Positions 7,001 through 30,765 of a DNA stretch of 64,000 bases are shown here, piece after piece. A program made the translations under genes and the position numbers. The stretch spans positions 63,737-127,736 of the forward strand of contig JBEKZV010000011.1 in the NCBI GenBank assembly GCA_049509515.1. The letters are read 5' to 3'. Position 1 is the stretch's first letter; each line of letters starts with the position of its first letter. Origin of the DNA: Thermoguttaceae bacterium (GTDB taxonomy: Bacteria; Planctomycetota; Planctomycetia; Pirellulales; Thermoguttaceae). The notes under the pieces are model-generated. The model made no database searches. It was not told where the DNA came from and saw only the letters and a program-made list of their open reading frames with translations.

Positions 7001-10000
7001 CAGTAATAGTCTCCGCCAAGTACGGTTCGACGCTCATCGGGCTGGGGGCCTCCGTGGGCGGCCCCCGCCGCGTGCTCGCCGGTATCATAATGCCGGCTGG
7101 AAGAATCGTCGGGATCGATCGACGGCGAGACCTTCTTCTTGTCGCCCATCACCAGGGCGAAGATGGCCGGCACGACCAGGAGCGTGGCGAAGGTCGAGAC
7201 CAACAGCCCGCCGATCACGGCCCGCCCCAGCGGGGCGGTCATTTCGCTGCCCTCTTCCAGCGCCAAGGCCATGGGCAGCGTGCCCAGCAGCATGGCGATG
7301 GCCGTCATCAGCACCGGGCGGAGCCGGTCGCGAGCCCCTTCGACCGCCGCCTGCCGGACCGTCGCGCCGGCCCGCCAGTGATCGTCCATGAAGGTGGAGA
7401 GCAGCACCGAGTTGGAGACGGAGACCCCGACGCACATGATCGAGCCCATGAACGACTCGATGTTCAGCGTCGTGCCGGTCAGCAACAGGATGCTCGCCAC
7501 GCCGCACACCACGCCCGGCACCGCCCCGATGGACACCAGCCCCAGCCGGAACGACTGGAAGTAGCCGGTCAACATGACCAGGATCACCACGACGGACAGG
7601 GCCAGGCCGAAGGCCAGCGACTGGAACATCTCCGTCATGGGGGCGACCTGGCCGCGGACCTGGACCCGCACCCCGCGGGGCATCTCCCCGGCATCGGCGA
7701 TGGCCTGGGCCTCGGCAGCCTCGATGGCCTCGGCGATCTCGACCGACGCCCGCCCCAGGTCTTCCCCCTCGACGTTGGCCGTGATGCTCAGGTAGCGCTG
7801 CATGGAGCTGCGATCGATCTGGCCGGGCGTGGTGCCGGTGCGCACGCTGGCCACGTCGCGGACCACCAGGTTGCTGCTGTCGGTGACCTTTTCGATGGGC
7901 AACGTCTCCACCTGTTGGGCCCGGTTCATGCGCTGCAAAGGCACCTGGACCTGGACCTGGTAATCCACGCCGGTGTGCGGGTCGCGCCAGTAGTTTTTGG
8001 CCACGTAGCGGCTGGAGGAAGTGCCCACCAGAAGCGCGTCGGTAACGTCCTTGATCGTCACGCCGCTCAGTCCCGCCTTCTCGCGGTCGATGTCCACCTG
8101 CACGGTCGGGTAATCGAGTTGCTGGTAAAGCTGCACGTCTTTGAGGCTGGGAATGTTCTGCATCTCGTGGAGGACCCGCAGCGCGTGCCGGCGCACGTCG
8201 GCCAGCTCCGGGCCGACCACCATGACCTCGACCGGGGTCGGCGAGCCGAAGCTCATCACCTCGCTGACGATGTCGCCCGGCTCGAAACTGAAGGAAATCT
8301 TCGCGGCCATCGACTGCGCTTCCGCGGCCGAGTACCCGTTCCGCTGCAATTCCTCTTTCAGCCACGGGACCAGCTCGTCGGGCAACGCCTTGCGCAGGCG
8401 CTGGCGCAGGTCCGCAAGGTGCAGCTCCGTCCCCGGCGCCAACCGCACGCGCATCTGCCCGTCGTCCGGGCCGCGCATGAAGAGCAGCATGTTGTTCGTG
8501 GCGGTGTTGGTGGCCGCCATGCCGACGTAGCCCATCGAGATCGCCACCTGGTGCTCGGTTTGCTCGTCGAAGACCTCCAGCATTTTGAGCGCCAACTTCC
8601 GCGTGACTTCGTAGTCGGAGCCCGGGGGCGCGCGGAAGCGGATCACGAACTGGCCCGCGTCCACCTGCGGAAACAGCTCGGTGCCCACCCGGATGCCGAC
8701 TTGCCAGAAGAGCAGGCCGCACGCCGCGAGGTAGGCCGGGACGGCGATCCACCGCAGCCGCACCACGGCCCCGACCAGCACCGCGAAGGGGGGCAGAACG
8801 CGGTCGAAAAGGCCCTCCTTGTGGGCCGCCTCGCCCCCGTGTTTCATGAGCCAAACCGAGAGCACCGGCACGAGGGTGCTGGAGAGCAGGTAGGACGCGA
8901 CCATCGAGAATCCCACCGCCAGGGTCAGCGGCATGAACAGCGAGCGGACCGGCTCGTTCAAGATGAACGTGGGAATGAACACCGACAGGATGCAGAGCAT
9001 GGCCAACAGCCGCGCCGTGGCCGTGGCCGCAGCGGCCCGCCGCGCCGCGCGGGCCACGGAGTCCGTGCGCTTCATCTGCGCATGGGTATTCTCGATGGTG
9101 ACCACGGCCTCGTCCACGAGAATCCCGATCGCCAGTGCCAACCCGCCCAGCGACATGATGTTCAGCGTGTTCCCGGTAAGCCGCAGGCCGATCAAGGCCG
9201 AGGTCAGCGAGCAGGGAATGCTCACCAGCACCACGACCACGCTCCGCACGTCCTGGAGAAACAGCAGGATCATCAGCCCCGTCAGCCCGGCGCCGATCAG
9301 GCCCTCGGTGCCCACGCTCCAGATCGCCGCCTTCACTGTCGGCGATTCGTCGAACTCGTAACGCACGCGGACGTCCGGGGGCACCACGTCTTGGAAAAGG
9401 TGCATCGACTTGTGGATCAGGTTCACCACGGTCAGCGTCGAAGCGGTGTCTTTCTTCACCACCGGGATGTAGATCGACTTGCGGCCGTTCACCAGCGCGC
9501 AGCCGTAGTTGATGTCCGTGCCGTCCAGAATGCCGTTGTGGGCGGTGACCACGTCGCGAATGTAGACGTTGCTGCCGGGATGAATGGGAATGTCGCCCAG
9601 GGTCTGCGGATCGGCGACCATCGCGTTGGTGGGCACCAGCGGCATTTGCGCCGGCAAGTACAAATTGCCGGAAGGCGTGACCACGTTGCCGGTCCCCAAG
9701 GCATTCACCACGTCCTCGGGCGAGAAGTTGTGCGCCCGCAACCGATCGGGATCGACCGTAATCACGATCGCCCGCGTATTGCTGCCGAAGGGCGCGAACG
9801 AGATCGTGCCCGGCAACTGGGCAATCAGCATCGGCCGGATCTTTTGCATCCCCAGGTCGGCCAACTCCCCCAGCGGGCGGCTCTTGCTCTCCAGCACGAT
9901 GTAGCCGATGGGCACGTTCGCGGCGTCGAAACGCATTACGAAAGGCGGCAACACGCTGGGGGGCATCTGCCCGCGGGCACGGTTCGCCAGGCTGACCACC

Positions 10001-10320
10001 TGGGACATCGCCGCCGACATGTCCGTCTCCGGGTAAAAGGTCAGCTTCAACAGAACCATATTCTGAATGTTCTTGGATTCGATCCCCTTCAGCCCGTCCA
10101 CGTACTGGAAGTTCAACTCGTAGACGTTGGTGATGATCCCCTCGATCTGCGAGGGGTCCATCCCCGCGAAGTTGTTCAGCACATAGATTTGCGGGGCGTT
10201 GATGGCGGGGAAGATGTCCACCCGCATCTTGGTCAGGGCCAGTCCGCCCGCTCCCAGGACGGCCACGATAATCATGACCAGCGTGACCGGCCGCCGCATT
10301 GCGAACACGGTAAGGTTCAT
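7000..10320 (-). CDS. RND superfamily efflux permease (AcrB/CzcA/CusA superfamily)
   Basis: 1106 aa and predicted 12 TM segments. Begins MNLTVFAMRRPVTLVMIIVAVLGAGG. Contains the TM4 motif ALAIGILVDEAVVTIEN and two large periplasmic loops. Translationally coupled to the downstream adaptor gene. Confidence 0.9.
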   Translation of the reverse strand: MNLTVFAMRRPVTLVMIIVAVLGAGGLALTKMRVDIFPAINAPQIYVLNNFAGMDPSQIEGIITNVYELNFQYVDGLKGIESKNIQNMVLLKLTFYPETDMSAAMSQVVSLANRARGQMPPSVLPPFVMRFDAANVPIGYIVLESKSRPLGELADLGMQKIRPMLIAQLPGTISFAPFGSNTRAIVITVDPDRLRAHNFSPEDVVNALGTGNVVTPSGNLYLPAQMPLVPTNAMVADPQTLGDIPIHPGSNVYIRDVVTAHNGILDGTDINYGCALVNGRKSIYIPVVKKDTASTLTVVNLIHKSMHLFQDVVPPDVRVRYEFDESPTVKAAIWSVGTEGLIGAGLTGLMILLFLQDVRSVVVVLVSIPCSLTSALIGLRLTGNTLNIMSLGGLALAIGILVDEAVVTIENTHAQMKRTDSVARAARRAAAATATARLLAMLCILSVFIPTFILNEPVRSLFMPLTLAVGFSMVASYLLSSTLVPVLSVWLMKHGGEAAHKEGLFDRVLPPFAVLVGAVVRLRWIAVPAYLAACGLLFWQVGIRVGTELFPQVDAGQFVIRFRAPPGSDYEVTRKLALKMLEVFDEQTEHQVAISMGYVGMAATNTATNNMLLFMRGPDDGQMRVRLAPGTELHLADLRQRLRKALPDELVPWLKEELQRNGYSAAEAQSMAAKISFSFEPGDIVSEVMSFGSPTPVEVMVVGPELADVRRHALRVLHEMQNIPSLKDVQLYQQLDYPTVQVDIDREKAGLSGVTIKDVTDALLVGTSSSRYVAKNYWRDPHTGVDYQVQVQVPLQRMNRAQQVETLPIEKVTDSSNLVVRDVASVRTGTTPGQIDRSSMQRYLSITANVEGEDLGRASVEIAEAIEAAEAQAIADAGEMPRGVRVQVRGQVAPMTEMFQSLAFGLALSVVVILVMLTGYFQSFRLGLVSIGAVPGVVCGVASILLLTGTTLNIESFMGSIMCVGVSVSNSVLLSTFMDDHWRAGATVRQAAVEGARDRLRPVLMTAIAMLLGTLPMALALEEGSEMTAPLGRAVIGGLLVSTFATLLVVPAIFALVMGDKKKVSPSIDPDDSSSRHYDTGEHAAGAAHGGPQPDERRTVLGGDYY

Positions 10321-10761: not shown

Positions 10762-12411
10762 ATGACGGCCACGATGCTGCCAAGACTGGCATTGCAGATT
10801 GCCATTCTGCTCGTGCTGAATGAAATCTGTGGTCTGGCCGCGCCCCCCTACGTGCCGGAACCTCCCGAGGCCATTGCGGCCCCCCCGCCACAGGCGCCCT
10901 TGCCGCCAAGACCGCTTCCGGGTGATGCCCAGCCCGACCAAATCTTCACATCGCCCGTCCTCAGCGAGAATTCACAGCCGCCGCCGATTCCGCCGGCCCA
11001 ACCCGCCAGATCGGACCAGCCTCTGCCGATCAACCTGGCCACGGCGCTGGGCTTGTCGAACGCGCGGCCGCTGGTGATCGCCTTCGCCCAGGCAAGCGTG
11101 GAAGAAGCGGCTGCCCGGCTACAGGGCGCCCAAGTCCTCTGGTTGCCGGACATCAATGCCGGCACGGAGTACTACCGTCACTCCGGAACGGATCAGTCGA
11201 CCGACGGCACGGTGATCCTCGACAACAAGCACTCCTTTTTTGCGGGCGGCGGGGTGACTCTCAACTTTGGAATCACCGACGCCATTTTCAGGCCGCTGGC
11301 CGACCGCCAGGAATTGGCCGCCCGCGAGTCGGACCTTCAGGCGGCGCAGAATGATGCGCTGCTGTCGGTTGCCCTGGCGTATTTCGACGTGCAGCAGGCC
11401 CGCGGCACCTTGGCCGGCACGCTGGACGCGGCGGCCAGGGCCGACGCGCTGGTCCGCAAGACCGCCGGCCTTGCCAAGGGGTTGGTGGCGGAAATCGAAG
11501 TGGACCGCGCCCGCGACCTGGCGTTCGATTTGCGACAGCAAATCGCCGCAGCGCGGGCCAATTGGCGGGTCACGAGCGCCCGGCTGACCCGCGTGCTCCG
11601 CTTGAACCCCGCCGCGGTGGTCGTTCCCCTGGAGCCGCCGCATCTTCAAGTGTCGCTGATCGCGCCCGGATTCAAGGTTGCCGATCTGCTCCCTGTCGGC
11701 TTGGCAAACCGCCCGGAGCTGGCCGCGCAGCGCGCCCTGGTGCAGGCCAGCTATGAGCGGGTGCGGCAGGAGCGGTTCCGCCCCTTTCTTCCCAGTGTGG
11801 TCGTGGGGGGGGAAAACGGACCCGGCGGCGCCTTCAACGGCGGCCTGTTCGGCGGTGGCACCGACAGCGGCCCGCAACTCTACGGCGGTCGCTTCGACGT
11901 GGACGTGGGAGTCGTCTGGACGCTCGACAACCTGGGCGCGGGCAACAGGTCCCTGGTCCGCCAGCGGATCGCTCAAGAACAGCGAGCCGCAATCGACTTC
12001 GCCAACGTCCAAGACCAGGTGGCCCAGGAAGTGGTCCAGGCGCACGCCCAAATGGAGGCGACGGCCGCCGAGGTCGATTACGCCATGACCGTCGTGAAAG
12101 AAGCGGTCATCACCTACAACGGCACGTTGCGGGGCCTCGATCCCCACCAGGTCGGCGACCTGCTGCAACTGGTCAGTCGCCCGCAGGAAGCCGTGGCGGC
12201 GCTCGAGCAGTTGAATCGGGCCTATGGCATCTATTTCGCCGCCGTCAACGGCTACAATCGCGCTCAATTCCAGCTCTATCAGGCCTTGGGCTTTCCCGCC
12301 CGAATTCTCGTGTGCGACCACCCGGTGGGAAAGGTGCAATCGCTGGACACGTCTCGGCCGCCGGGCATGGCCCCCGTCGGCCCCTTCATCCGTTCTTGCC
12401 CCTGCCCGTAA
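10762..12411 (+). CDS. TolC-like outer-membrane efflux protein (OEP family)
   Basis: Listed as an ORF from 10717. The internal Met at 10762 gives a signal peptide MTATMLPRLALQIAILLVL. Two OEP repeats with long helical segments. Transcribed divergently from the RND/adaptor operon, so the 10321-10761 spacer probably holds both promoters. Confidence 0.8.
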   Translation: MTATMLPRLALQIAILLVLNEICGLAAPPYVPEPPEAIAAPPPQAPLPPRPLPGDAQPDQIFTSPVLSENSQPPPIPPAQPARSDQPLPINLATALGLSNARPLVIAFAQASVEEAAARLQGAQVLWLPDINAGTEYYRHSGTDQSTDGTVILDNKHSFFAGGGVTLNFGITDAIFRPLADRQELAARESDLQAAQNDALLSVALAYFDVQQARGTLAGTLDAAARADALVRKTAGLAKGLVAEIEVDRARDLAFDLRQQIAAARANWRVTSARLTRVLRLNPAAVVVPLEPPHLQVSLIAPGFKVADLLPVGLANRPELAAQRALVQASYERVRQERFRPFLPSVVVGGENGPGGAFNGGLFGGGTDSGPQLYGGRFDVDVGVVWTLDNLGAGNRSLVRQRIAQEQRAAIDFANVQDQVAQEVVQAHAQMEATAAEVDYAMTVVKEAVITYNGTLRGLDPHQVGDLLQLVSRPQEAVAALEQLNRAYGIYFAAVNGYNRAQFQLYQALGFPARILVCDHPVGKVQSLDTSRPPGMAPVGPFIRSCPCP

Positions 12412-19721: not shown

Positions 19722-22700
19722 TCAGGGCGATCCTGGGGCAGCGGAAGGTGCATGGTAAATGCTCTGGGGGTCATCGGGGTCGAGAGAGGCCGACTCGGTA
19801 GTCGCGCGCGACTGCACCAGGGCGAAAACCGCGGGCAGGACCAGCAGCGTGGCGGTGGTGGCCGCCGCCAGGCCGCCGATCACTGCTCGACCCAAGGGCG
19901 CGTTCTGTTGGCCGGACTCACCCCACGCCAGGGCCATGGGCAGCATACCCGCCATCATGGCGCAGGTGGTCATCAGGATGGGACGCAGCCGGCTGCCCGC
20001 GCCCTCGACCGCCGCGTCCGTCCCGGCCGCGCCGCGGCCGGATGTTTGCGCCAGTGCCCGCCGCCGGCTCTCGGCGAAAGTGACCAAGAGGATCGCGTTG
20101 GCCATCGCCACGCCGACGGCCATGATGGCGCCGATCAAGGATTGGATGTTCAACGTCGTGCGGGTCAGGTAGAGCATCGCCACCACCCCGGCAATGGCCG
20201 CGGGGGCCGTGGAGACGGCAACCAGCGACAGCCGCACGGATTGAAAATTCGCGGCCAGCAGGAGGAAAATAACGACCACGGCCAGCGCCAGTCCCAGGGC
20301 CAGCCCGCTGAGCATGTCGCGCATCAGCGGAATCTGCCCGCGGGCCTCGACCTTGACGCCGGGCGGGGGCTCGCCCGCCTGTTCCAGGGCCGCAGCGACT
20401 TCCCGCGAGACGCTGCCGAGGTCCGTGCCGGCGATGTTCGCCGCCATGCTCACCTGCCGCTTCATGTTGTAGCGGTCGATTTCGCCGGGCATGGTTCCGC
20501 TGGAAACCGTGGCCACGTCCCGGACCAGGACCTGGCCGGCGGCGTTGTGCTTGACGGGGACCATCTTCAAGTCGCCGATCGAGCCGATCGGCCGCATGCC
20601 CTTGGGAGACCGCACCACCGGCCGCGGCACTTCCACCTGCACCTGGTAGCCGATGCCGGTCTTGGGATCGGCCCAGAAGTTCGGCACCGTGAAGCGGCTG
20701 GAGGAGGTGGCCTCGGCCAGCGACCTTGCCACGTCGCTGGGCGTGACGTACACGGTTCCCGCTTTCTTGCGGTCCACGTCGACCCGGACCACCGGGTAGT
20801 CCAGCGATTGGACGATCTGGAGATCCCGCAGGCCGGCAATCCGGCCCAGCCCGTCCATGAGTTTGTCGGCGTAGGGGCGGGTCTCCGCGAAATCCGGTCC
20901 GTTGACGGCCACCTCCACCGGCGTGGGCGAGCCGAAGCTCATCACCTCGTTGATGATGTCGGCCGGCTCGAAGGAAAAATGCACGCCCGGCAGGGCGTCC
21001 GCGAGTTTGTCGCGGAGTTCCTCTTTCAGCGGCTCGACGTGAATGCCGCTCTGCCTCTTCAAGGCCACCCACATCAACGCCTCTTCCGGCCCGCGCATCC
21101 ATTGAAACACGCCGTTGATCGGGTAGCTGGAGCCGATCGTGCCGAGATAGCCCAGGCTCGTCTGGACGTTGTCCGCCCCCGCGGCGTCGCGGATGACCTC
21201 CAGGGTCTTCAGGGCAATCTGTTCGGTCCGGTTGATGTCCGTTCCGTCCGGGGCGCGGATCCGCAGGCGGAATTGGCCGGTGTCGATGGTCGGGAAAATC
21301 TCCGTGCCCAGCCGCGCGCCCAGCCCCCAGATGATCGCCAACGATACGGCGAGATAGGCGGCCACGATCCCCCACCGCAAGCGGACGATCCGCGCCAAGA
21401 CCCGCTCGTACCCTTGCCGGAAGCGATCGAAGGGGACCCCGCGCAGCCAACCGAGCGGCAAGGTGCCGCGGCCGGACGCAGGGCCGGCCGCGGGCGGGGC
21501 GGCAGGCGGCCCGTCGCCCAGGTGTACGTGACGCAAGAGCCAGACGGAGAGCACGGGCACGAACGTGCTCGACAGCAGATACGAGGCCACCATCGCGAAC
21601 CCGACGGCCAGCGACAAGGGCACGAACATCGCCCGCGGCGCACCCTGCATGAAAAACGAGGAAATGAACACGGCCAGGATGCAGACCATCGCCAAGAGCC
21701 GCGGGACGGCGGTCTGCGCATTTCCCAGCCGCACGGCCCGGGCAATCGAGGGGGCGTGGCCCATCTGGGTGTGGATGTTCTCGATCTCCACGGTCGCCTC
21801 GTCCACCAGAATCCCGATGGCCAGCGCCAGTCCGCCCAAGGTCATCACGTTGATCGTCTGTCCGCTAAGCCACAGCGCGAGCACGGCCGCCATCAACGCC
21901 AGCGGAATGTTCAACAAGACGATGATCGCGCTCCGCCAGTCCCGCAGGAACACGAGAATCATCAGGCCCACCAGCACGGCCCCCAGCGCCCCTTCGCTCA
22001 CGACGCCCCAAATGGCCCGGGTCACGTAGGGCAACTGGTCGAACTCGTAACTGACGTGAATGTCCCGCGGCAGGACGGCCTGCATCTCGGGCAACGCCGC
22101 CTGCACCGCGTGGACCACGCTGTAGGTCGAGGCGTCGGCACGCTTGGTGACCAGGATGTAGACCGCCCGGCGACCGTCGGCCAGCGCATAGCCCGTGGGA
22201 GCGTCCGTCGTGTCCTGGACGTATCCCACGTTGTGAATATAGACCGGCGCCTTGGGGCCGGTCCGCAGCGGGATCGTTTCCAGGTCCTTTACCTCGCGGA
22301 CCACCGAGTTCACCGGAACGAAAGGGTACTTGCCCTCCAGGGGAAGGTTGCCCGACGGGCTGATCGCGTTGCCTTCGGCCAGGGCATTGACGATATCCTC
22401 CGGGGTCATGTCGTAGGCCCGCAGCCGCTCGGGATCGACCGTAACGACCACCGTCCGCTGGTTGCCGCCGAAGGGAGGCGGCGCGGAGACGCCCGGCAGG
22501 CTGGCGAACATCGGCCGCACCCGGAACAACGCCAGGTCCTGGATCTCGCCGATACTGCGGGTCTCGCTGGAGAGGACGAGGTAGCCGACCGGCACGCTGC
22601 CCGTATCGAAGCGCATCACGAATGGCGATACCGTGCCCGGCGGCATGAACGCCCGGGCACGATTGACGTAGCCGACCGTTTCCGCCATCGCCTGGGCCAT

Positions 22701-23000
22701 GTTCGTGCCCGGATGGAAGAACAACTTCATCAGGGAAAGGCCCTGGATGTTCCGCGACTCGACGTGGTGGATGCCGGTGACGTACAGGAAGTGATACTCG
22801 TAGTAATTGGCGAGGAACCCTTCCATCTGCGCCGGGTCCATGCCGCCGTAGGGCTGGCAGACGTAGATCACCGGCAGGTTCAGGCTGGGGAAAACGTCGA
22901 TCGGCATCCGGCGGATTGCCAGAATGCACCCCAGCGTGACACCCACCAGCGCCACCATGACGGTGAAAGGGCGCCGAAGTGCGAATCGGATCAGCCACAT
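19722..23000 (-). CDS. RND superfamily efflux permease, second system
   Basis: 1092 aa and predicted 12 TM segments. Motif ALAIGILVDEATVEIEN. Roughly 50% identical by eye to the 7000..10320 permease. Confidence 0.9.
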   Translation of the reverse strand: MWLIRFALRRPFTVMVALVGVTLGCILAIRRMPIDVFPSLNLPVIYVCQPYGGMDPAQMEGFLANYYEYHFLYVTGIHHVESRNIQGLSLMKLFFHPGTNMAQAMAETVGYVNRARAFMPPGTVSPFVMRFDTGSVPVGYLVLSSETRSIGEIQDLALFRVRPMFASLPGVSAPPPFGGNQRTVVVTVDPERLRAYDMTPEDIVNALAEGNAISPSGNLPLEGKYPFVPVNSVVREVKDLETIPLRTGPKAPVYIHNVGYVQDTTDAPTGYALADGRRAVYILVTKRADASTYSVVHAVQAALPEMQAVLPRDIHVSYEFDQLPYVTRAIWGVVSEGALGAVLVGLMILVFLRDWRSAIIVLLNIPLALMAAVLALWLSGQTINVMTLGGLALAIGILVDEATVEIENIHTQMGHAPSIARAVRLGNAQTAVPRLLAMVCILAVFISSFFMQGAPRAMFVPLSLAVGFAMVASYLLSSTFVPVLSVWLLRHVHLGDGPPAAPPAAGPASGRGTLPLGWLRGVPFDRFRQGYERVLARIVRLRWGIVAAYLAVSLAIIWGLGARLGTEIFPTIDTGQFRLRIRAPDGTDINRTEQIALKTLEVIRDAAGADNVQTSLGYLGTIGSSYPINGVFQWMRGPEEALMWVALKRQSGIHVEPLKEELRDKLADALPGVHFSFEPADIINEVMSFGSPTPVEVAVNGPDFAETRPYADKLMDGLGRIAGLRDLQIVQSLDYPVVRVDVDRKKAGTVYVTPSDVARSLAEATSSSRFTVPNFWADPKTGIGYQVQVEVPRPVVRSPKGMRPIGSIGDLKMVPVKHNAAGQVLVRDVATVSSGTMPGEIDRYNMKRQVSMAANIAGTDLGSVSREVAAALEQAGEPPPGVKVEARGQIPLMRDMLSGLALGLALAVVVIFLLLAANFQSVRLSLVAVSTAPAAIAGVVAMLYLTRTTLNIQSLIGAIMAVGVAMANAILLVTFAESRRRALAQTSGRGAAGTDAAVEGAGSRLRPILMTTCAMMAGMLPMALAWGESGQQNAPLGRAVIGGLAAATTATLLVLPAVFALVQSRATTESASLDPDDPQSIYHAPSAAPGSP

Positions 23001-24912: not shown

Positions 24913-26046
24913 TTACGGTTGGCCCCACGCCAGGGCGAACCGCGCCACGTCGAACGCCGCCTGCGGCCTTCCCAGGCGCCGGGCATTGGCCTTCATGCCG
25001 GCCAGGCGGGCCGGGTCGTCCAGGAGCTTCGCCAGCTTGTAGGGCAGCGTGGCGATGTTGTTCACCTTGATCGCCGCCCCGTTCTCCAGCAGAAAGTCGC
25101 TGTTGCGGGCCTCCTGCCCGGGGATCGGGTTGGCAATCATCAGCGCCGCGCCCCGGGCGAGCACCTCGGAGGTGGTCAGCCCGCCCGGTTTCGAGAGCAC
25201 CACGTCGGCGGCGGCCATCAATTCGTCCATCTGCGTGGTAAAGCCGAGGATCTTGACCTGGTGCCGCGGAGGGACCTCGATCTGCTCCAGCCGCCGTTGC
25301 AGCTCCTCGTTCCGGCCCGACACGACAATTACCGCCAGCGGCCCGGCCATGGAGAGCAATCCCTGAAAGAGCTTTTCCACCGGCCCCAGGCCGAATCCGC
25401 CGGCAAGCTGGAGGATCACCGGCCGGTCGTCCGCGAGGCCAAGCCCCGCGCGGCACTCGCGGCCGCTCTTCGCCTCGCTGAAGACCGGATGGATGGGGAT
25501 TCCGCTGACCGTGATCTGGCCGGGGGGAACGCCCCAGTGTGCCAGGTACGCGGCCCCTTCTTCCGTGGCCGTGAAGTAATGCTCGCACGGTTGGTTGACC
25601 CACAGGCGGTGGGTCTCGAAATCCGTGGTCACGGTGAGCTGCCCGGTGGCGATTTCGTCACGTCGCCGCATCGCGGCGATGATTTCGGCCGGCAGGAAAT
25701 GCGTGTTGACGATCACGTCCCAGCTCTCCGACCGCAAGAGCCGCGAGAACCGCCTGAGGTTCAGCCGCTCGACCAACAGCCGCAGGCGGTCCGCCTTGCG
25801 CCGGGCCGACGGCGGCTGATCGAGCAGGTCGTACACATAGCCCAGCACGTGCGGGGCCTTGTTCACCAGCTCGAAGTACGTCCGGCTGTACACGCGGCGA
25901 AAGGCCGCGTTGGTGAGCTCCAGCACGTCGAGGTTCTTCACGACGGCGTCGGGCGCCACCTGCCGCAGGGCGGCCTCGACGGCCTCGGCCGCCCGCAAGT
26001 GCCCCGCCCCAACCGAGGCGGACAAGACCAGAATGCGTCGGGACAT
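24913..26046 (-). CDS. Monogalactosyldiacylglycerol-synthase-like glycosyltransferase (GT28 family, MGDG_synth N-terminal domain plus Glyco_tran_28 C-terminal domain)
   Basis: 377 aa beginning MSRRILVLSASVGAGHLRAAEAVEAAL. Also contains VIVNTHFLPAEI, a nucleotide-sugar-binding C-terminal half, and GLTTSEVLARGAALM. Confidence 0.8.
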   Translation of the reverse strand: MSRRILVLSASVGAGHLRAAEAVEAALRQVAPDAVVKNLDVLELTNAAFRRVYSRTYFELVNKAPHVLGYVYDLLDQPPSARRKADRLRLLVERLNLRRFSRLLRSESWDVIVNTHFLPAEIIAAMRRRDEIATGQLTVTTDFETHRLWVNQPCEHYFTATEEGAAYLAHWGVPPGQITVSGIPIHPVFSEAKSGRECRAGLGLADDRPVILQLAGGFGLGPVEKLFQGLLSMAGPLAVIVVSGRNEELQRRLEQIEVPPRHQVKILGFTTQMDELMAAADVVLSKPGGLTTSEVLARGAALMIANPIPGQEARNSDFLLENGAAIKVNNIATLPYKLAKLLDDPARLAGMKANARRLGRPQAAFDVARFALAWGQP

Positions 26047-26062
26047 GGAATGTCACCCGGCC

Positions 26063-27238
26063 TCACTGCAAATCCAGGCAGACCAATTCTCCCGCATGAC
26101 TGCGGCAGTACACGCGGCCGTTGGCCACCATCGGCATCGTCCAGCACTGGCCGTCGAGGATTTTGGCCCGGGCCAACTCCTTGAAGGCATTGGGCGACGC
26201 CTCGGCCACCAGCAGGGTGCCGCCGTCGAGCATGACGAACAGCTTGCCGTCGGCCAGGGTCAGGCCGCCGCCGACCGGCAGGCCCTTCTGGCCCCACTGG
26301 ACCTTGCCCGTCTCGAAGTCCAGGCACTTGAGGCTGGCTTTCTGGCCCTGCTGGCCGTCGACGCCGTACAGGTAGCCGCCCGCGAGCACGCAGGTCTGGC
26401 AGTGGTTGCACATCTCCTTGTTTTCCCAGACCTTGGTGAGGCTGTCGTCCTGGAGCTGCAAGAGGGCGCAGCCGCGGCCGTAGCCGCTGGAGATGAAAAT
26501 CTTGCCGCCGGAGACGATCGGCGTGGCCGCATTCACGCCGTAGGCTGTTTCCCAGTGGTGCTTGGCGATCGGCTCGCCTTTGGCCAGGTTGTAGACCGCC
26601 AGGCCGGCGCCGTTGAACGAAGTGACGAGTTTTTGGCCGGCGTGGTTGAAGACGACGGCCGAGGCATAGCCGGCGGTTTCCGAGCCGGCCTTCCAGACCA
26701 GCTCACCGGTCTTGGCCTCCAGCACGAAGACCACGCCGAGGTCCATGATCACCTGGCCACCCAGCACCAACGGCGAGGCGGACAGTGCCCAGCCGCCCTG
26801 TTTCACTCCGAAGGCGTCGACTTTTTTCGACCACTGGAGCTTGCCCTTGGCCGCGTCGAGGCACACGAGCGTGTGGTCGTTGCCGAGCGCGAAGACCATC
26901 TCTCCCGCGACAGCCGGCGTGGCGGTGGTCTCGCCGCCTTTGCCCTTGCCGGCCGGGTAGTTCCACACGCTGTCGCCCGTCTCGGCATCCAGGCAGCGGA
27001 CGGCGCCCTCGCCTTGCGTGTACAGCCGCTTGCCGACCGCGACCATGCACGAATGCCCGCTGCCCACGTTCTTCTTCCAGAGCACCTTCGGGCCGTCCTC
27101 GGCCCAGAGCTTGAGGCCCTTGTCGGCCGAAGTATTGTTGCGACTGGCGCCGAGGTAACACGGCCAGTCGGCCGCTTGGCCCGCGGCCCCCCAAAGTACC
27201 GTGCACAGAGTCAGGGCGAGCATGTGTCGTGTGGTCAT
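26063..27238 (-). CDS. Secreted PQQ-like beta-propeller repeat protein
   Basis: Listed as an ORF to 27310. The signal-peptide start MTTRHMLALTLCTVLWGAAGQAA is at 27238. Repeated WxxxxGG...Y/LY propeller blades (LWKKNVGSGHS...RLYTQ, VWNYPAG..., LQWSKKVD..., LVWKAGS..., VQWGQKG...). Only 16 bp upstream of the glycosyltransferase gene, so probably in the same operon. Confidence 0.75.
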   Translation of the reverse strand: MTTRHMLALTLCTVLWGAAGQAADWPCYLGASRNNTSADKGLKLWAEDGPKVLWKKNVGSGHSCMVAVGKRLYTQGEGAVRCLDAETGDSVWNYPAGKGKGGETTATPAVAGEMVFALGNDHTLVCLDAAKGKLQWSKKVDAFGVKQGGWALSASPLVLGGQVIMDLGVVFVLEAKTGELVWKAGSETAGYASAVVFNHAGQKLVTSFNGAGLAVYNLAKGEPIAKHHWETAYGVNAATPIVSGGKIFISSGYGRGCALLQLQDDSLTKVWENKEMCNHCQTCVLAGGYLYGVDGQQGQKASLKCLDFETGKVQWGQKGLPVGGGLTLADGKLFVMLDGGTLLVAEASPNAFKELARAKILDGQCWTMPMVANGRVYCRSHAGELVCLDLQ

Positions 27239-27638
27239 CGGATAGCTCCCTTGGTGTTGGAATGGACGGACAACCTGGCGGCATTTTACCGCGCCGCGCG
27301 GCCCGCACAAGATGGGGCGAGGGGACGATGCGCCGCGGGCCGGCAGAACTCACGGCCCCCCAGTTGAACGCCTTCCCGACTGGTGCTACAACCGTCTGGA
27401 GGTCGGTATCCAAGCGGACCGTGAGGACCGTGACAACCGCCTGGTACGCTACTGCCGACGACCTCCAGCCGGATACGATCAGCACGTTTTGAACGTCGGC
27501 CGCCTCGGTGGAACCTCGCATGGGTTCGGGGCCCTCATGGCGAGCGACGAAATACTCCCAACCTGGCGGCAGCGTGTTATATTGACCGTTGCACTTCGCC
27601 ATTTCAGGGGGGGGCGTTTGGCCGATCCCCAAGGCAAA

Positions 27639-29006
27639 ATGGCTTCAATACCCGGTTGCCGTCCCATGAGCATCCCGATCGACGACCTCCTGTTTGGACT
27701 CCGGCCCGCCCGTTGGGCCTGGAAGCCGCTGCTGAAGCGTTTGGTGACCGGCAGCTTCGCTCCGCTGGCCATGGGGCCGGGCGAAACGGAGGTGCCGGCG
27801 GGACTGCAACGGCTGGGGCTCTACCTGCATGTCCCTTTCTGCCACAACCTTTGCCCGTATTGCCCCTACCATCGGGTGAAGTTCGACGAAGGACTCTACC
27901 GCCGCTACGAGGCGGCAGCCCACCAGGAAATCGACCTCCGCGCGCGGCAGATGGCCGGGAGCCTCGCCAGGAGCGGCGGCCAGCGGCCGCGGATCGTCTC
28001 CGTGTACGTTGGCGGCGGCACGCCTACGGTTGTGCCGGAGGGGCTCTCGCGGCTTCTGGCCCATCTGGCCGAGGCCTTCGGGCCGGCCGGCGACGTGTGC
28101 GTCGAGCTGCACCCTGCCGCCATGGACGACGGCTGCCTGGCACTCCTGCGGGCCTCGCGCGTCACCATGCTCTCGGTGGGTGTCGAGAGCCTTTCGGATC
28201 GGCTCCTGGGACTCGTCGGCCGATCTCACGATGCCGCCGCGGCCGAGGACGCCGTCCGCCGGGCGGTAGCGCGCGGCTTTGAGGCGGTCAACGTCGATTT
28301 GATGTTCGCACTGCCCACGCAGACGGTCGACGAGCTGGACCAAGACCTCCGCCGCGTGCTGGCCTTGGGAGTCGATCAGGTCTCGACGTACCCGATCTTC
28401 GGCTTTCCTTATACCGAATGGGGGCAGGAGTTGGGGCTGGCCAGGATCGGCCGTCCGCGCGGCGACGTGATCCGCCGGATGCTGGACTTGATCCGCCGGC
28501 GGTGCCGCGAGCACGGCCTGGAACAGTGCGCCGTCTGGTCCTTCCTGCGGCCGAGCAAGAAGAAGTTCAGCTCCATCACCCGGCATCACTACCTGGGCTT
28601 CGGCCCAAGCGCGGCCTCGATGACCGGCAGGCAGTTCTGCGTCAACACGTTCTCGGTCGACGAGTATGCGGCCGCACTGCCGGGACGCTCCCCCGTCGCC
28701 CTGGTCCTGCCGGTGGACCGGCGGCTGGAAATGGCCTATTGGCTGTACTGGCGGGTCTATGAAATGAAGCTCGGCTGCGCCGATTTCCGGGAGCTGTTCG
28801 GTGAAGAGCTGGAGGTGGTCTACGGCAGGCTGCTGAGGGCACTGGTGCGCCTGGGCATGATGGAGCGACACAACGGCTCCTACCGGGTCGCCCAGGGCGC
28901 CGCCTACTGGGTCCATCGCTTCCAGAACGAATACTCGCTCAACTACATCAATCGCCTCTGGGGCCGCTGCCGCCGGGAGGCCTGGCCGCCCGAGGTGAGG
29001 CTGTAA
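27639..29006 (+). CDS. HemN-family radical SAM protein (coproporphyrinogen-III-oxidase-like, HemW-like or class C rSAM methyltransferase-like)
   Basis: ORF frame 27312..29006. ATG candidates at 27639 and 27666. CxxxCxxC cluster HVPFCHNLCPYCPY. HemN hallmark VYVGGGTPT. Stop overlaps the next gene's start (TAATG). Confidence 0.8.
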   Translation: MASIPGCRPMSIPIDDLLFGLRPARWAWKPLLKRLVTGSFAPLAMGPGETEVPAGLQRLGLYLHVPFCHNLCPYCPYHRVKFDEGLYRRYEAAAHQEIDLRARQMAGSLARSGGQRPRIVSVYVGGGTPTVVPEGLSRLLAHLAEAFGPAGDVCVELHPAAMDDGCLALLRASRVTMLSVGVESLSDRLLGLVGRSHDAAAAEDAVRRAVARGFEAVNVDLMFALPTQTVDELDQDLRRVLALGVDQVSTYPIFGFPYTEWGQELGLARIGRPRGDVIRRMLDLIRRRCREHGLEQCAVWSFLRPSKKKFSSITRHHYLGFGPSAASMTGRQFCVNTFSVDEYAAALPGRSPVALVLPVDRRLEMAYWLYWRVYEMKLGCADFRELFGEELEVVYGRLLRALVRLGMMERHNGSYRVAQGAAYWVHRFQNEYSLNYINRLWGRCRREAWPPEVRL

Positions 29007-29926
29007 TGGGACGTACTCGCGGCTCTCCGGGCCGAAAAGCCTGGTACTTCCTGCGTCTCGCCGGGAGCCTGGCCCGCGGCACGCCCCGTCCGGTCGTGGG
29101 CGGCATTTCGCTGACCGACGTGTGCAACCTCGACTGCGTCCACTGTTGGCGAAAGAACCAGGGGGCGGGCCACGTTCCCCTGGGGCAAGTGCTGACAAGC
29201 CTGCGCACCTTGTACGCGATGGGCGCCCGGTATCTGTACATTCAAGGAGGCGAGCCCTTCACTTGGCAGGATGGCAGCCGGCGGCTCGACCACGTTGTCG
29301 ACGAGGCCAAGGGGATCGGTTTCTTCCACGTCGCCGTGTGCACCAACGGCACCTTTCCCCTGGACGCCGAGCCGGATTCGTTTTCCGTGAGCCTGGAGGG
29401 GCGGCCCGGCTCCCACGACGCGATCCGCAGCGGCTCGTTCGAGCGGGTGATCGGCAACGTCGCGGCGAGCCGCCACCCGAACATCTTCGCCAACGCGACG
29501 TTCAACCGGCAGAATCAGGAGGATCTGGCCTTCTTGGCCGAGTTCGCGGCCTCTTCCCGCCAGTTGCGCGGAATCCTGGTCAACTTCCACATTCCTTATC
29601 CGGGCGTCGAACACCTGGCCCTGAGCATGGAGGAGCGGGCACGGCTGGCCCGGCAGGCCATGGAACTCAAACGCCGCGGCTACCCGATCCTCAATACGTA
29701 CGGCGGGCTGCGGGCGCTGGCCCGAAACAACTGGCGGCGTCCGCTGGACCTTTCCGTCGTGACCGACTGTCGCACGTACTACTCCTGCTGCCGCGCCCGG
29801 GGCAACGACCGCATCTGCCGGGAGTGTGGATACGCCGGCTGGGCGGAGTTGGCCCAGGTCTTCGCGTGGGACATACGCAGCGTCTTCGAGGTGCTCGGCA
29901 AGCTCCATCGGCGGCCGAAGCGATGA
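29006..29926 (+). CDS. Radical SAM protein with a C-terminal auxiliary Cys cluster (SPASM/twitch-like)
   Basis: 306 aa. The segment GISLTDVCNLDCVHCW is the CxxxCxxC cluster. C-terminal cysteines CRTYYSCCRARGNDRICRECGYAGW. Overlaps the upstream stop and the downstream start (ATGA at 29923-29926). Confidence 0.8.
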   Translation: MGRTRGSPGRKAWYFLRLAGSLARGTPRPVVGGISLTDVCNLDCVHCWRKNQGAGHVPLGQVLTSLRTLYAMGARYLYIQGGEPFTWQDGSRRLDHVVDEAKGIGFFHVAVCTNGTFPLDAEPDSFSVSLEGRPGSHDAIRSGSFERVIGNVAASRHPNIFANATFNRQNQEDLAFLAEFAASSRQLRGILVNFHIPYPGVEHLALSMEERARLARQAMELKRRGYPILNTYGGLRALARNNWRRPLDLSVVTDCRTYYSCCRARGNDRICRECGYAGWAELAQVFAWDIRSVFEVLGKLHRRPKR

Positions 29927-30765
29927 CCCCGAGCCATCTCCCCAGCACAGGCGGCCCCGATCGGCCACGGATCGGATTGGTGGTCGTGGACGACGGCCTC
30001 TATGCACACCGCTGGGTGGCATCCGTGCTGGACCAGGAGAGCATCCGGCCGATCTGTGTGGCTTGCCTGAGCCCCTTTCGGGCCGTGAACCTCAATCCCG
30101 GCGGGGCCCGCGGCTTTTGGGCGGTCAGCCGGGCGAGACTGGCCTACTATGGACGTGTTGCCACATTGAAATTCGGCTGGAAGGCGGCCGGGGCGGTAAT
30201 CGGCGGGCTACGCTTTCGGCTGGGGCTGGGAGGCGAGCCTCGCAGCGTGGCTGCGTTGGCCCGCGCCCGCGGAATCGAGGTGCTGCGGCCGGCCCGCAGC
30301 GACATCGACGACCCCGCCTTTCGCTCCAGGCTGAAAGGCCTTCGCCCGGACCTGCTGGTCTGTGCGTTTTCCCAGAGGGCGAACCGGGATTTTCTGGAGG
30401 TGCCGCGGCTCGGCTGCCTGAACGTCCATTTCTCGCGGCTGCCCGAGCATCGCGGCCGGGAGCCCCTGTTCCACGCTATGCTCGCCGGCCACGGCGCGGG
30501 CGTCTCGGTGCACTGGATGGCCCCCAGGCTGGACGCCGGTCGTATTGTCCTGCAAGAGCCGCTGGACGCAACCGGCCACTGCACGCTTCACGGGCTGATC
30601 CTCGCGGCCTGCGACTTGGCCGCCCGGGTTGTACCGGCGGCGATCGAGAGGGCGATTGCCGGGCCTCCGGCGGAAACCGATACTGGGCCGGTGCCTCCCA
30701 TGGCCGGGTGGCCAGGGCGGGCAGAGGTCGCACGGTTCAGGTCGCGAGGATTCCGCTTTGTGTGA
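29923..30765 (+). CDS. Formyltransferase-domain protein (Fmt/ArnA N-formyltransferase-like)
   Basis: This is the C-terminal, in-frame part of the 547-aa ORF 29122..30765. The true start is ATG at 29923 (MTPSHLPSTGGPDRPRIGLVVVDDGL...). Formyl_trans_N motifs: LLVCAFSQ..., NVHFSRLPEHRGREP (HxSLLPxxRG-like) and VHWMAPRLDAGRIVLQEP. Confidence 0.75.
   Translation: MTPSHLPSTGGPDRPRIGLVVVDDGLYAHRWVASVLDQESIRPICVACLSPFRAVNLNPGGARGFWAVSRARLAYYGRVATLKFGWKAAGAVIGGLRFRLGLGGEPRSVAALARARGIEVLRPARSDIDDPAFRSRLKGLRPDLLVCAFSQRANRDFLEVPRLGCLNVHFSRLPEHRGREPLFHAMLAGHGAGVSVHWMAPRLDAGRIVLQEPLDATGHCTLHGLILAACDLAARVVPAAIERAIAGPPAETDTGPVPPMAGWPGRAEVARFRSRGFRFV

Follow-up and report, generated by a model that had tools for sequence, protein, structure and literature searches.

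A rare three-gene cassette of a HemN-like protein, a twitch-type radical-SAM protein and a predicted N-formyltransferase in anaerobic bacteria

We analysed a 64,000-nucleotide stretch of DNA from a Thermoguttaceae bacterium (assembly GCA_049509515.1, contig JBEKZV010000011.1; the whole stretch is called the window below) that carries adjoining genes for a HemN-like radical-SAM (rSAM) protein, a second rSAM protein and a formyltransferase. Judged by its gene order in other genomes, this cassette appears to be a rare and self-contained unit, with the same three-gene order in several anaerobic bacterial phyla. Its core appears to be a wider, uncharacterised pair of HemN-like and twitch rSAM genes that is widespread in anaerobes, to which, on the best reading, a folate-dependent N-formyltransferase of predicted function was added in a Planctomycetota/Elusimicrobia clade. 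Family membership and gene neighbourhood lead us to propose, tentatively, that the cassette would carry out an anaerobic two-component rSAM tailoring of a lipid-like substrate, with N-formylation in this clade. It does not appear to serve canonical anaerobic heme synthesis, nor to be tied functionally to the GT28/PQQ operon that diverges from it.

Results

The three genes overlap and have a promoter-like leader

The cassette lies on the + strand, in three reading frames that end at 29006, 29926 and 30765. Gene 1 (27666..29006) encodes the HemN-like protein, HemNL, of 446 amino acids; gene 2 (29006..29926) encodes the small twitch-type protein, rSAM2, of 306; and gene 3 (29923..30765) encodes a formyltransferase of 280 amino acids that consists of the N-domain only. 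A translationally coupled operon had been called in the first-pass annotation, and the start-to-stop overlaps are present at both junctions: TAATG at 29004-29008 (GCTGTAATGGGA; TAA 29004-29006, ATG 29006-29008) and ATGA at 29923-29926 (GCGATGACC; ATG 29923-29925, with TGA ending at 29926). Gene calls made independently at other loci show the same overlaps (1 nt and 4 nt in L001 and in L098, 4 nt and 4 nt in L099), indicating that the coupling is conserved and not a chance arrangement. An alternative ATG for gene 1 lies upstream at 27639; the start is more likely at 27666, since homologues are 444-446 amino acids long and begin to align at residue 10, the gene caller picks the 446-residue form, and L011 lacks the upstream ATG.

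A promoter-like 5' leader (27556..27665, + strand) travels with the cassette. Alignment of the upstream DNA to that of L011 is confined to this segment, and the genes further upstream differ in L011. The leader contains an extended -10-like element, TGTTATATT, at 27575-27583 and a conserved CGATCCCCAAGGCAA immediately 5' of the start codon. The exact 12-mer TGTTATATTGAC is restricted to L011 and the window's own copies, while a related GCGTGTTATAT...TTCGCC is found upstream of a stand-alone homologue in L006. Neither a match in Rfam nor a hit in a sigma-70 scan was obtained for the leader. We infer that the cassette is self-contained, with a leader of its own whose function is predicted.

The cassette recurs across phyla without its window neighbours

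The three-gene order was found at 11 other loci in Planctomycetota, Elusimicrobia and a 'Myxococcales' MAG, namely in nine species-representative genomes (185,579 scanned), in L018 and in the distant L019. Conservation across the Planctomycetes had been put forward as a check on the block, and its order extends beyond them. The gene-called contexts of these loci are all different. In the window a PQQ_2/BamB-like propeller gene (26063-27310 or 27223) lies directly across a divergent spacer, and a GT28/MGDG-synthase-like gene (24913-26046), resembling a diacylglycerol glycosyltransferase, lies behind it. The spacer, described earlier as 400 bp, measures about 355-440 bp, and on its far side it is bordered by the propeller gene. 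None of the window neighbours, these two genes included, stands beside the block in the other loci, even in L011, which is 81-89% identical, so the proposed link to the GT28/PQQ operon is unsupported. The suggestion of a route feeding the cytochrome island is likewise unsupported: at other loci the block shows no link to genes for heme or cytochromes.

Of 61 informative metagenome loci with a relative of rSAM2, 54 have a HemN-like gene adjoining it, on the same strand in 53, and the pair is also present in Anaerotalea alkaliphila, a Dojkabacteria MAG and Thermoanaerobaculaceae. The formyltransferase gene is missing from most pairs and is one of several lineage-specific accessories; the others are a gene for a signal-peptide protein of ~200 amino acids, a complete OleABCD-like olefin operon and an Aas/LplT-like lysophospholipid gene.

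HemNL appears to belong to a distinct HemN-like clade

The domain content assigned earlier was recovered in all three proteins, with PF04055 in HemNL (69.5 bits) and rSAM2 (48 bits) and PF00551 (Formyl_trans_N) in the third (57.8 bits against a gathering score of 26.1). HemNL carries LYLHVPFCHNLCPYCPY, VGGGTP, QVSTYPI and NTFSVDEY. Its best NCBIfam matches all belong to the HemN-like group, and no equivalog cut-off is reached (bits/cut-off: PRK08629 166/355, STM4012 124/380, HemW 121/205, ChuW/HutW 114/400, HemN 90/325). Among proteins of solved structure it is closest to NocN (87.8 bits over ~280 residues) and HemN (76.4 bits over ~200). The best 120 homologues listed share 53-93% identity and belong to Planctomycetota, Elusimicrobia, NC10, Nitrospirota and Acidobacteria; several close homologues have a detectable HemN_C domain, and stand-alone genes occur among them at 55-62% identity.

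As the first-pass annotation had anticipated, gene 1 is not a canonical HemN or HemW. The HemN/CgdH model TIGR00538 gives 90.1 bits against a cut-off of 324.95 and covers only the N-terminal 195 residues, and the fourth cysteine of CX3CX2CXC (CHKLCYFCGC in E. coli) is a tyrosine in the CHNLCPYCPY of HemNL; none of 115 close homologues has this cysteine. For HemW, TIGR00539 gives 121.3 bits against 205.4, and the HemW motif HNxxYW (PMC10320005) is absent from HemNL and all 115 homologues. The heme-degrading methyltransferase ChuW/HutW (TIGR04107) was rejected at 114 bits against 400. Membership of MenK/MqnK/MenK2 was assessed with the six menaquinone-methyltransferase (MKMT) signature motifs of Wilkens et al. 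2021, tabulated in PMC10320005. One of the six is exact in HemNL (NxFxxxxY) and two are approximate (QVSTYPI for QxTxYPL, and the cluster motif with a final Y for F), whereas YFxxxRxE, GxxFxxxYxGGGT and RxSxGxQxFxxxxL are absent; HemNL has GVES in place of GxQxF, that is, Q replaced by E. These scores and motifs place HemNL in what appears to be a distinct HemN-like clade with the hallmarks CxxxCP[YF]CPY and NTFxxxxY. The label 'class C methyltransferase', for enzymes that bind two SAM molecules and pass a C1 unit to an sp2 carbon, would be a putative one, based on sequence kinship to NocN and HemN.

The motif pattern bears on whether the cassette might tailor quinones, HemNL being a relative of the MenK/MqnK-type C-methyltransferases and rSAM2 making a second anaerobic quinone modification. 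NxFxxxxY is found in 95% of MKMTs against 2% of HemW (PMC10320005), Qx[ST]xYP[LI] is nearly matched, with QxTxYPL exact in 10 of 48 pair-associated homologues, genes for polyprenyl synthase, NrfD, TatC and FdhE-like proteins lie near a few loci, and stand-alone homologues exist, as for MenK. We nevertheless regard this as very improbable, given the three missing MKMT motifs and the finding that men or mqn genes are adjacent nowhere. The NrfD/FdhE contexts, moreover, probably derive mainly from rSAM2 relatives that have no HemN-like partner, and the formyltransferase would be left without a role.

rSAM2 has a conserved C-terminal cysteine cluster

In rSAM2, CNLDCVHC close to the N-terminus provides the CX3CX2C cluster motif; this and its partial TIM-barrel core place the protein in the radical-SAM superfamily. 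The C-terminal cysteine cluster noticed in the first reading is real: C262, C271 and C274, spaced CX8CX2C, show little or no variation across 22-28 homologues. The top fold matches are twitch/SPASM enzymes, consistent with a predicted auxiliary Fe-S cluster, and BlsE ranks marginally above Tes, which is second, and SkfB and SuiB. Among models of known anti-phage systems (PADLOC), rSAM2 is weakly similar to the pVip core (29 bits), and nothing was found for HemNL or the formyltransferase. In L062 and related loci, an rSAM2 relative that lacks the HemN-like partner is followed by an FdhE-like gene.

With both rSAM proteins described, a tetrapyrrole substrate can be considered; HemNL might then act as a heme chaperone (HemW/CgdH2-like) or ChuW-like methyltransferase, and rSAM2 as a side-chain processor resembling AhbC, AhbD or NirJ. 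The best NCBIfam matches of gene 1 are all heme-related, some homologues are named 'Fe-coproporphyrin III synthase' by JGI, and C. jejuni CgdH2 binds heme although it falls in the MenK clade with QxTxYPL and NxFxxxxY (PMC10320005). The matches of rSAM2 to AhbC, AhbD and NirJ, however, are weak (24.2, 23.7 and 33.6 bits against 650, 500 and 515) and, like the ChuW score, far under the cut-offs; HemNL lacks the fourth cysteine and HNxxYW; and the formyltransferase has no obvious tetrapyrrole amine as its target. The block is without heme genes in every locus, and the pair is present in a genome of the Dojkabacteria (CPR), a group not known to have heme synthesis or respiration, although the gene there is split. 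A tetrapyrrole role is accordingly very unlikely, and the earlier view that this is unlikely to be canonical heme synthesis holds, HemNL being below the HemN and HemW cut-offs.

Maturation of a ribosomal peptide, by a twitch rSAM and a class C methyltransferase as with NosN and TbtI in thiopeptide pathways, was also weighed, as the nearest solved relative of HemNL, NocN, is a thiopeptide enzyme, SkfB and SuiB are high-ranking fold matches of rSAM2, and in L099 genes for an M28 peptidase and a MATE exporter lie ahead of the cassette. We judge it highly improbable: a search of 1.5 kb around the cassette in 12 loci revealed no conserved small ORF (18-110 aa), rSAM2 at 306 residues is too short for a peptide-recognition (RRE) domain, and no recurring YcaO, lanthipeptide or protease/transporter set was found.

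Gene 3 is a formyltransferase outside the Fmt and ArnA families

The Fmt/ArnA-type motif reported for gene 3 proved correct, in that NVHFSRLPEHRGREP aligns with the catalytic N-x-H of Fmt (as NVH in the alignment to B. anthracis Fmt) and the LDAG Asp is present too. In an alignment of 20 family sequences (the P0157 row of which looks frameshifted) the Asp is invariant, the His is kept in ~19 and the Asn in ~17. The Asn-His-Asp triad and the domain score place the protein in the formyltransferase superfamily, although no NCBIfam cut-off is reached (PRK06988 64/316, and Fmt and ArnA as follows). Fmt was rejected at 77.3 bits against 201.5 (TIGR00460), and the tRNA-binding PF02911, which true Fmt matches carry, is missing in the protein and its orthologues. 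ArnA was rejected at 53.6 bits against 777 (PRK08125), the protein being a single domain with no fused dehydrogenase. A two-helix insertion of ~35 residues (65-99) follows strand 2, with no strong signal of amphipathicity, and the C-terminal tail WP..E...F..GFRF is conserved. The AF2 model has a pLDDT of 91.3, its nearest folds being Fmt, ArnA-FT and WbkC (TM 0.5-0.63). The close family is very small, with only 24 cluster representatives at E<=1e-30 among 1.84 billion.

The closest of the wider relatives include GT2 fusions such as P0391, a pointer to amino-sugar substrates. Together with the ArnA-FT, Fmt and WbkC folds, and with GT-C, GT28 and Wzx-like genes near some cassettes, they bring up nucleotide-sugar or glycan tailoring. 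A BlsE-like rSAM2 would then decarboxylate or epimerise, by radical chemistry, a uronic or amino sugar linked to a nucleotide or nucleoside, the resulting amino sugar would be formylated by an ArnA/WbkC-like enzyme, and the product would pass to a polyprenyl-linked glycoconjugate. We consider this unlikely, because aminotransferase, dehydratase and nucleotidyltransferase genes are absent in or near any cassette, a sugar substrate is known for no HemN-like enzyme, and the BlsE score barely exceeds those of Tes, SkfB and SuiB. It also fits poorly with the absence of the formyltransferase from most pairs and with the Ole context described below.

Gene contexts of related loci give indirect pointers to lipids

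Genes that are OleB-like, OleA/FabH-like (two), OleC-like (614 bits, above the PRK09274 cut-off) and OleD-like (349 bits) immediately precede the pair, on its own strand, in L079, L061, L093 and L097. Because these loci are 66-85% identical and of one lineage, they count as one observation, and OleABCD genes were found in these four loci only, not in the window or any formyltransferase-clade locus. The ~200-residue signal-peptide protein, whose SRPBCC matches are sub-threshold (E 0.02-1.4), is encoded between the two genes of the pair or next to them in 13 loci, including L019, which has the formyltransferase. A mycolate-reductase-like SDR occurs near the pair in L085, and a lipid-type B12-rSAM and a GT2 in L059. 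Within the formyltransferase clade, an AMP-binding/ACP/PlsC/MFS (Aas-LplT-like) fusion lies just upstream in L014, two TMEM260-type GT-C genes lie in the same run in L001, and L100 has a polyprenyl synthase. In L099 a folate enzyme (FTCD_C) is within the same-strand run. Tes, the second-best fold match of rSAM2, is a lipid-coupling enzyme. A census of 135 same-strand neighbours contained no Pfam family more than three times, and an enrichment of lipid genes is not statistically established, since such genes are common in genomes. The earlier idea of a lipid or glycolipid modification is plausible, with indirect pointers that come from related loci and not from the window.

Discussion

In the lipid-tailoring scheme that we tentatively favour, both rSAM enzymes would act on one hydrophobic, membrane-associated small molecule, for which fatty-acid-derived, olefinic or polyprenyl/glyco-lipid compounds are candidates. 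HemNL may add a SAM-derived methylene to an sp2 carbon (class C type) or catalyse a HemN-type oxidative decarboxylation, and rSAM2 would activate a second C-H bond, leading to decarboxylation, dehydrogenation or C-C coupling. The formyltransferase would then use 10-formyl-tetrahydrofolate to give a formylated amine on the substrate or its head group; no formyltransferase is known to act directly on lipids. It is rather doubtful, though worth stating, that the pair is an unrecognised but widespread two-component rSAM system modifying long-chain lipids or olefins in anaerobes, for example by O2-free C1 addition to C=C or decarboxylative C=C formation, and that the cassette yields an undescribed N-formylated amino-lipid or glycolipid.

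Mis-annotation of HemN-like proteins as coproporphyrinogen oxidases is routine, and several of their clades still lack characterisation (PMC10114718). One of these can now be defined by CxxxCP[YF]CPY, NTFxxxxY and an almost obligatory small twitch rSAM partner, in a pair that turns up in many lineages of anaerobes with accessory genes that differ between them. Should the lipid reading be right, it would represent a new oxygen-independent route to hydrocarbon-chain modification, which would matter for lipid biomarkers in anoxic settings as well as for radical-SAM enzymology. Even if it is wrong, an erroneous heme annotation is corrected, an erroneous link to the neighbouring glycosyltransferase operon is dropped, and a compact three-gene target for heterologous expression remains.

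HemNL shares the LYxHxPFCxxxCxxC radical-SAM core, GGGTP and overall length with the HemN-like family (CgdH/HemN, HemW, NosN/NocN, TbtI, MenK/MqnK, ChuW/HutW and C10P/Jaw5), and NxFxxxxY and a near-QxTxYPL with the menaquinone methyltransferases. Unlike the HemNL clade, none of the characterised members is almost always found beside a dedicated small twitch rSAM. The STM4012 family of Salmonella, the second-best NCBIfam match, presumably has a second rSAM, STM4011, as its gene neighbour and would then show the two-rSAM arrangement seen here; the STM4011 model was not among the matches of rSAM2, a literature search on this pair found nothing, and we offer the resemblance as a lead only. The C10P/C10Q cyclopropanase (PMC6050322) also combines a HemN-like rSAM with an obligate, adjacently encoded partner in tailoring a small molecule. 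There the partner is a conventional methyltransferase, whereas here it is a second radical-SAM enzyme, and the cassette has no natural-product gene cluster around it.

rSAM2 itself is only 17% identical to the twitch/SPASM-class enzymes BlsE and Tes/GDGT-MAS, and differs from them in its three conserved auxiliary cysteines, CX8CX2C. The BlsE NCBIfam model gives 28.9 bits of 400 with the rSAM2 of L002, and the Tes model 23-37 of 450 with those of the window, L016, L017 and L002. The cassette formyltransferase has the Formyl_trans_N fold, the N-x-H...D triad and a loop of the HxSxLPxxRG type in common with the ArnA N-terminal domain, Fmt and WbkC, but it lacks the C-terminal OB-type domain and is set apart by its two-helix insertion and WP..E...F..GFRF tail. 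Where PurN and Fmt have a Gly-rich N-terminal loop, it carries the acidic DDGLYxHRW.

Three overlapping genes encode two radical-SAM proteins and a formyltransferase

Three open reading frames lie on the forward strand between 27.6 and 30.8 kb of the window, ending at 29006, 29926 and 30765. The first two meet in TAATG, with the stop codon at 29004–29006 and the next start at 29006–29008, and the second and third meet in ATGA (start 29923–29925, stop 29924–29926), exactly as the first-pass annotation had described. The same 1-nt or 4-nt overlaps are present in the gene calls of three other cassette loci (L001, L098 and L099). The start of gene 1 was placed at 27666, giving a protein of 446 amino acids rather than the 455 read from 27639, because its homologues are 444–446 amino acids long and begin to align at residue 10 of the longer reading, gene calls made independently on identical contigs chose the 446-residue start, and the closest relative does not keep the ATG at 27639. 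Pfam and NCBIfam find a radical-SAM core in gene 1 (hereafter HemNL), with only HemN-like proteins among its best full-length relatives, a second radical-SAM core in gene 2 (29006–29926; rSAM2), and a Formyl_trans_N domain in gene 3 (29923–30765). In L098, a Planctomycetota MAG, a predicted lipoprotein of 340 amino acids (11339–12361) without a family match stands between the HemN-like gene, which it adjoins, and rSAM2, which it overlaps by 1 nt.

HemNL scored below the NCBIfam cut-off of every curated relative (bits/cut-off: PRK08629 166/355, STM4012 124/380, HemW 121/205, ChuW/HutW 114/400, HemN 90/325), and it has neither the fourth cysteine that marks HemN nor the HNxxYW motif that marks HemW. 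Identity with HemN, HemW, HemZ or ChuW was therefore rejected on curated scores and motifs, and the earlier suggestion that canonical heme synthesis is unlikely is borne out. A tetrapyrrole function meets the same failure of scores and motifs; moreover, no heme genes are neighbours, and HemNL and rSAM2 occur as a pair in a CPR genome. For quinone methylation the motifs agree only in part: one of six menaquinone-methyltransferase motifs was exact, two were near and three were absent, and men or mqn genes are not adjacent. Among solved relatives, HemNL is nearest to the class C methylase NocN and to HemN, and pair-associated HemNL proteins have CxxxCP[YF]CPY and NTFxxxxY in common. Given the sub-cut-off scores, the missing HemN and HemW motifs, the partial menaquinone-methyltransferase motifs and the kinship with NocN and HemN, we conclude that HemNL belongs to the HemN-like family, within a clade of which no representative has been characterised. 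This clade is consistent with the 'unknown subclades' of the family noted previously (PMC10114718).

rSAM2 (306 amino acids) reaches no NCBIfam equivalog. Three cysteines are conserved in its C-terminal part, in keeping with the auxiliary Cys cluster noted on first reading. PADLOC returned weak similarity to the viperin core and nothing more, so that a defence system was discarded, and this negative result also speaks against antiviral nucleotide chemistry as the role of the cassette.

The Fmt/ArnA-type motif noted in the third gene also held: the 280-residue protein retains the catalytic N-x-H and Asp residues of the Formyl_trans_N domain. It lacks the Fmt C-domain, carries a two-helix insertion and a distinctive tail, and has Fmt, ArnA-FT and WbkC as its closest folds. 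A membrane-binding amphipathic helix in the insertion was considered and dropped, as the hydrophobic moment does not stand out. The tight family has very few members and grades into a large family of formyltransferase-like proteins of ~260 amino acids, some of them fused to GT2 glycosyltransferases. These fusions, together with the resemblance of rSAM2 to BlsE and of the formyltransferase to ArnA-FT, would fit the tailoring of a nucleotide sugar or glycan, but neither an aminotransferase nor a dehydratase is found near the cassettes.

The cassette is conserved independently of its surroundings

A formyltransferase profile scan of one genome per species (185,579 species) recovered nine loci, all of them in MAGs assigned to Planctomycetota, Elusimicrobia and one 'Myxococcales' bin, and every one carries the three genes in identical order. 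The block thus recurs within Planctomycetes, a point that the first-pass annotation had marked for checking, and also in the other two groups. Metagenomes supplied two further cassettes, L018 and the distant L019, in which the three genes are 44%, 41% and 31% identical.

The gene divergent from the cassette encodes a signal-peptide PQQ_2/BamB-type propeller and is followed by a GT28 gene resembling MGDG-synthase and diglucosyl-DAG-synthase. These neighbours had been tied functionally to the cassette at first reading, a link that did not survive comparison. By tblastn, nine window neighbour proteins (GT28, PQQ propeller, TIM-barrel, SPFH, GFO, RND and others) are absent from all other loci, even from L011, whose cassette is 81–89% identical, and all-versus-all ORF clustering grouped nothing across loci beyond the three cassette genes with their shadow ORFs. 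A functional link with the GT28/PQQ operon, or with other window neighbours, was accordingly rejected. Maturation of a RiPP, with the radical-SAM proteins acting on a peptide, would call for a precursor, but no conserved small ORF was found next to the cassette and this candidate was set aside. Elsewhere in the window, a second PQQ_2/BamB-like propeller (61697–63004, reverse strand) shares 32% identity with the cassette's neighbouring propeller, and two RND (ACR_tran) efflux pump paralogues (19722–23000 and about 7045–10320, both reverse strand) are 46% identical over their full length.

Directly 5' of gene 1, ~90–100 nt are conserved between the window (27556–27637) and L011 (7630–7715), while the DNA beyond is unrelated and the flanking genes differ. 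The leader includes an extended -10-like element, TGTTATATT, and the conserved block contains GCGTGTTATATTGACCGTT...TTCGCCAT; a related GCGTGTTATAT...TTCGCC lies 5' of a stand-alone HemN-like homologue at about 7905–7935 of L006. The block resembles an extended -10 promoter with a leader, and from its conservation against differing DNA beyond, the cassette seems to have a promoter of its own and to move, or be kept, independently of its surroundings. Neither a sigma-70 consensus nor a terminator signal in the 5' spacer exceeded shuffled sequences, and a riboswitch there was rejected for lack of any Rfam match at E≤1. Public gene calls place a 54-residue ORF in the divergent spacer (window 27328–27492, forward strand; L101 8323–8487); neither L011 nor any other cassette locus keeps it on that strand. 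That the cassette is conserved, autonomous and distinct from canonical heme synthesis is, in our judgement, highly likely.

HemNL and rSAM2 form the core gene pair

HemNL has 1,691 homologue matches, the best 120 of which are at least 53% identical, and the formyltransferase has far fewer orthologues, about 40. Thermoanaerobaculaceae have HemNL first and an rSAM2 relative second, with no formyltransferase; Anaerotalea alkaliphila and a Dojkabacteria MAG have rSAM2 ahead of HemNL. The HemN-like gene of the latter MAG (L017) is split into a 238-residue core (8923–9639) and a 183-residue C-terminal part (9650–10201); it either encodes an enzyme in two pieces or is decaying.

A scan of metagenomes with an rSAM2 profile gave 80 loci, 19 of them too short to judge for a HemNL neighbour; HemNL adjoins the rSAM2 relative in 54, on the same strand in 53. 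A further seven have room on both sides of the rSAM2 relative, yet no HemNL. Where rSAM2 relatives lack a HemN-like partner, an FdhE-like protein follows in some loci (L062 7858–8745, L070, L082 and L087), which points to a separate subfamily whose role differs and may lie in redox-enzyme maturation. In one low-GC pair lineage rSAM2 is immediately preceded by a conserved protein of 97–100 amino acids that matches no family (L020 6264–6557, and also L022, L023, L027–L029, L032, L036, L037 and L043). A few close HemNL homologues stand alone; one of these, in L004, directly follows an apparent tRNA gene (identified by eye) and a phage-type integrase/primase block (about 7880–7960), which would place it at the border of an integrated element.

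Gene contexts and a possible substrate

Among 135 same-strand neighbours of the wider pair family no Pfam family occurred in more than three. Contexts differ between loci, and several independent ones are lipid-related. One low-GC lineage (L061, L079, L093 and L097, counted once) has a clean Ole-type operon that includes the pair, in the order OleB-like hydrolase, two OleA/FabH-like thiolases, OleC-like beta-lactone synthetase, OleD-like reductase, rSAM2, a ~200-residue protein and HemNL. The ~200-residue protein lies between the pair in L061 and L097, and in L079 a separate 194-residue ORF comes after HemNL. The two adjacent FabH/OleA-like genes of L079 (2293–4234; 349 and 308 amino acids) resemble the heterodimeric thiolases of beta-lactone pathways. 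A ~200-residue signal-peptide protein with weak SRPBCC/START-type hints adjoins the pair in 13 loci, among them L019, which also carries the formyltransferase.

Other pair or cassette loci have a mycolate-reductase-like SDR (L085), a lipid-type B12-rSAM plus GT2 (L059), a polyprenyl synthase (L100), a pair of GT-C genes within the cassette's own run (L001) and, in the formyltransferase clade, an AMP-binding/ACP/PlsC/MFS fusion resembling Aas-LplT lysophospholipid recycling (L014); the GT28 gene of the window belongs with these. In L099 the run containing the cassette has an FTCD_C folate enzyme, a MATE exporter and an M28 peptidase. Drawn from a handful of contexts, the neighbour pattern would favour a hydrophobic, membrane-associated substrate as the candidate.

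The arrangement of the genes, its conservation, the failure of the proteins to fall into named families and their intact catalytic and cluster motifs are established. We infer from these observations a substrate class, a type of chemistry for each radical-SAM protein and an order of steps: HemNL and rSAM2 would form a two-component radical-SAM system tailoring a lipid-like molecule, with N-formylation an extra step specific to the formyltransferase-bearing clade. As a whole this proposal is tentative, and we rate it somewhat below an even chance.

Comparison with known systems

In curated libraries and the searchable literature the pairing of HemN-like and twitch-type radical-SAM proteins, and the cassette with its formyltransferase, have no described counterpart. 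Literature searches found nothing combining HemN-like proteins, a formyltransferase and radical SAM, nothing on STM4012 and nothing tying OleC or OleD to radical SAM, and the paper on the membrane-spanning-lipid synthase has no HemN link. All three proteins belong to known superfamilies, and there is therefore nothing categorically new in them; as read from sequence, the cassette would offer a well-defined, experimentally tractable system plausibly connected with the lipid chemistry of anaerobes.
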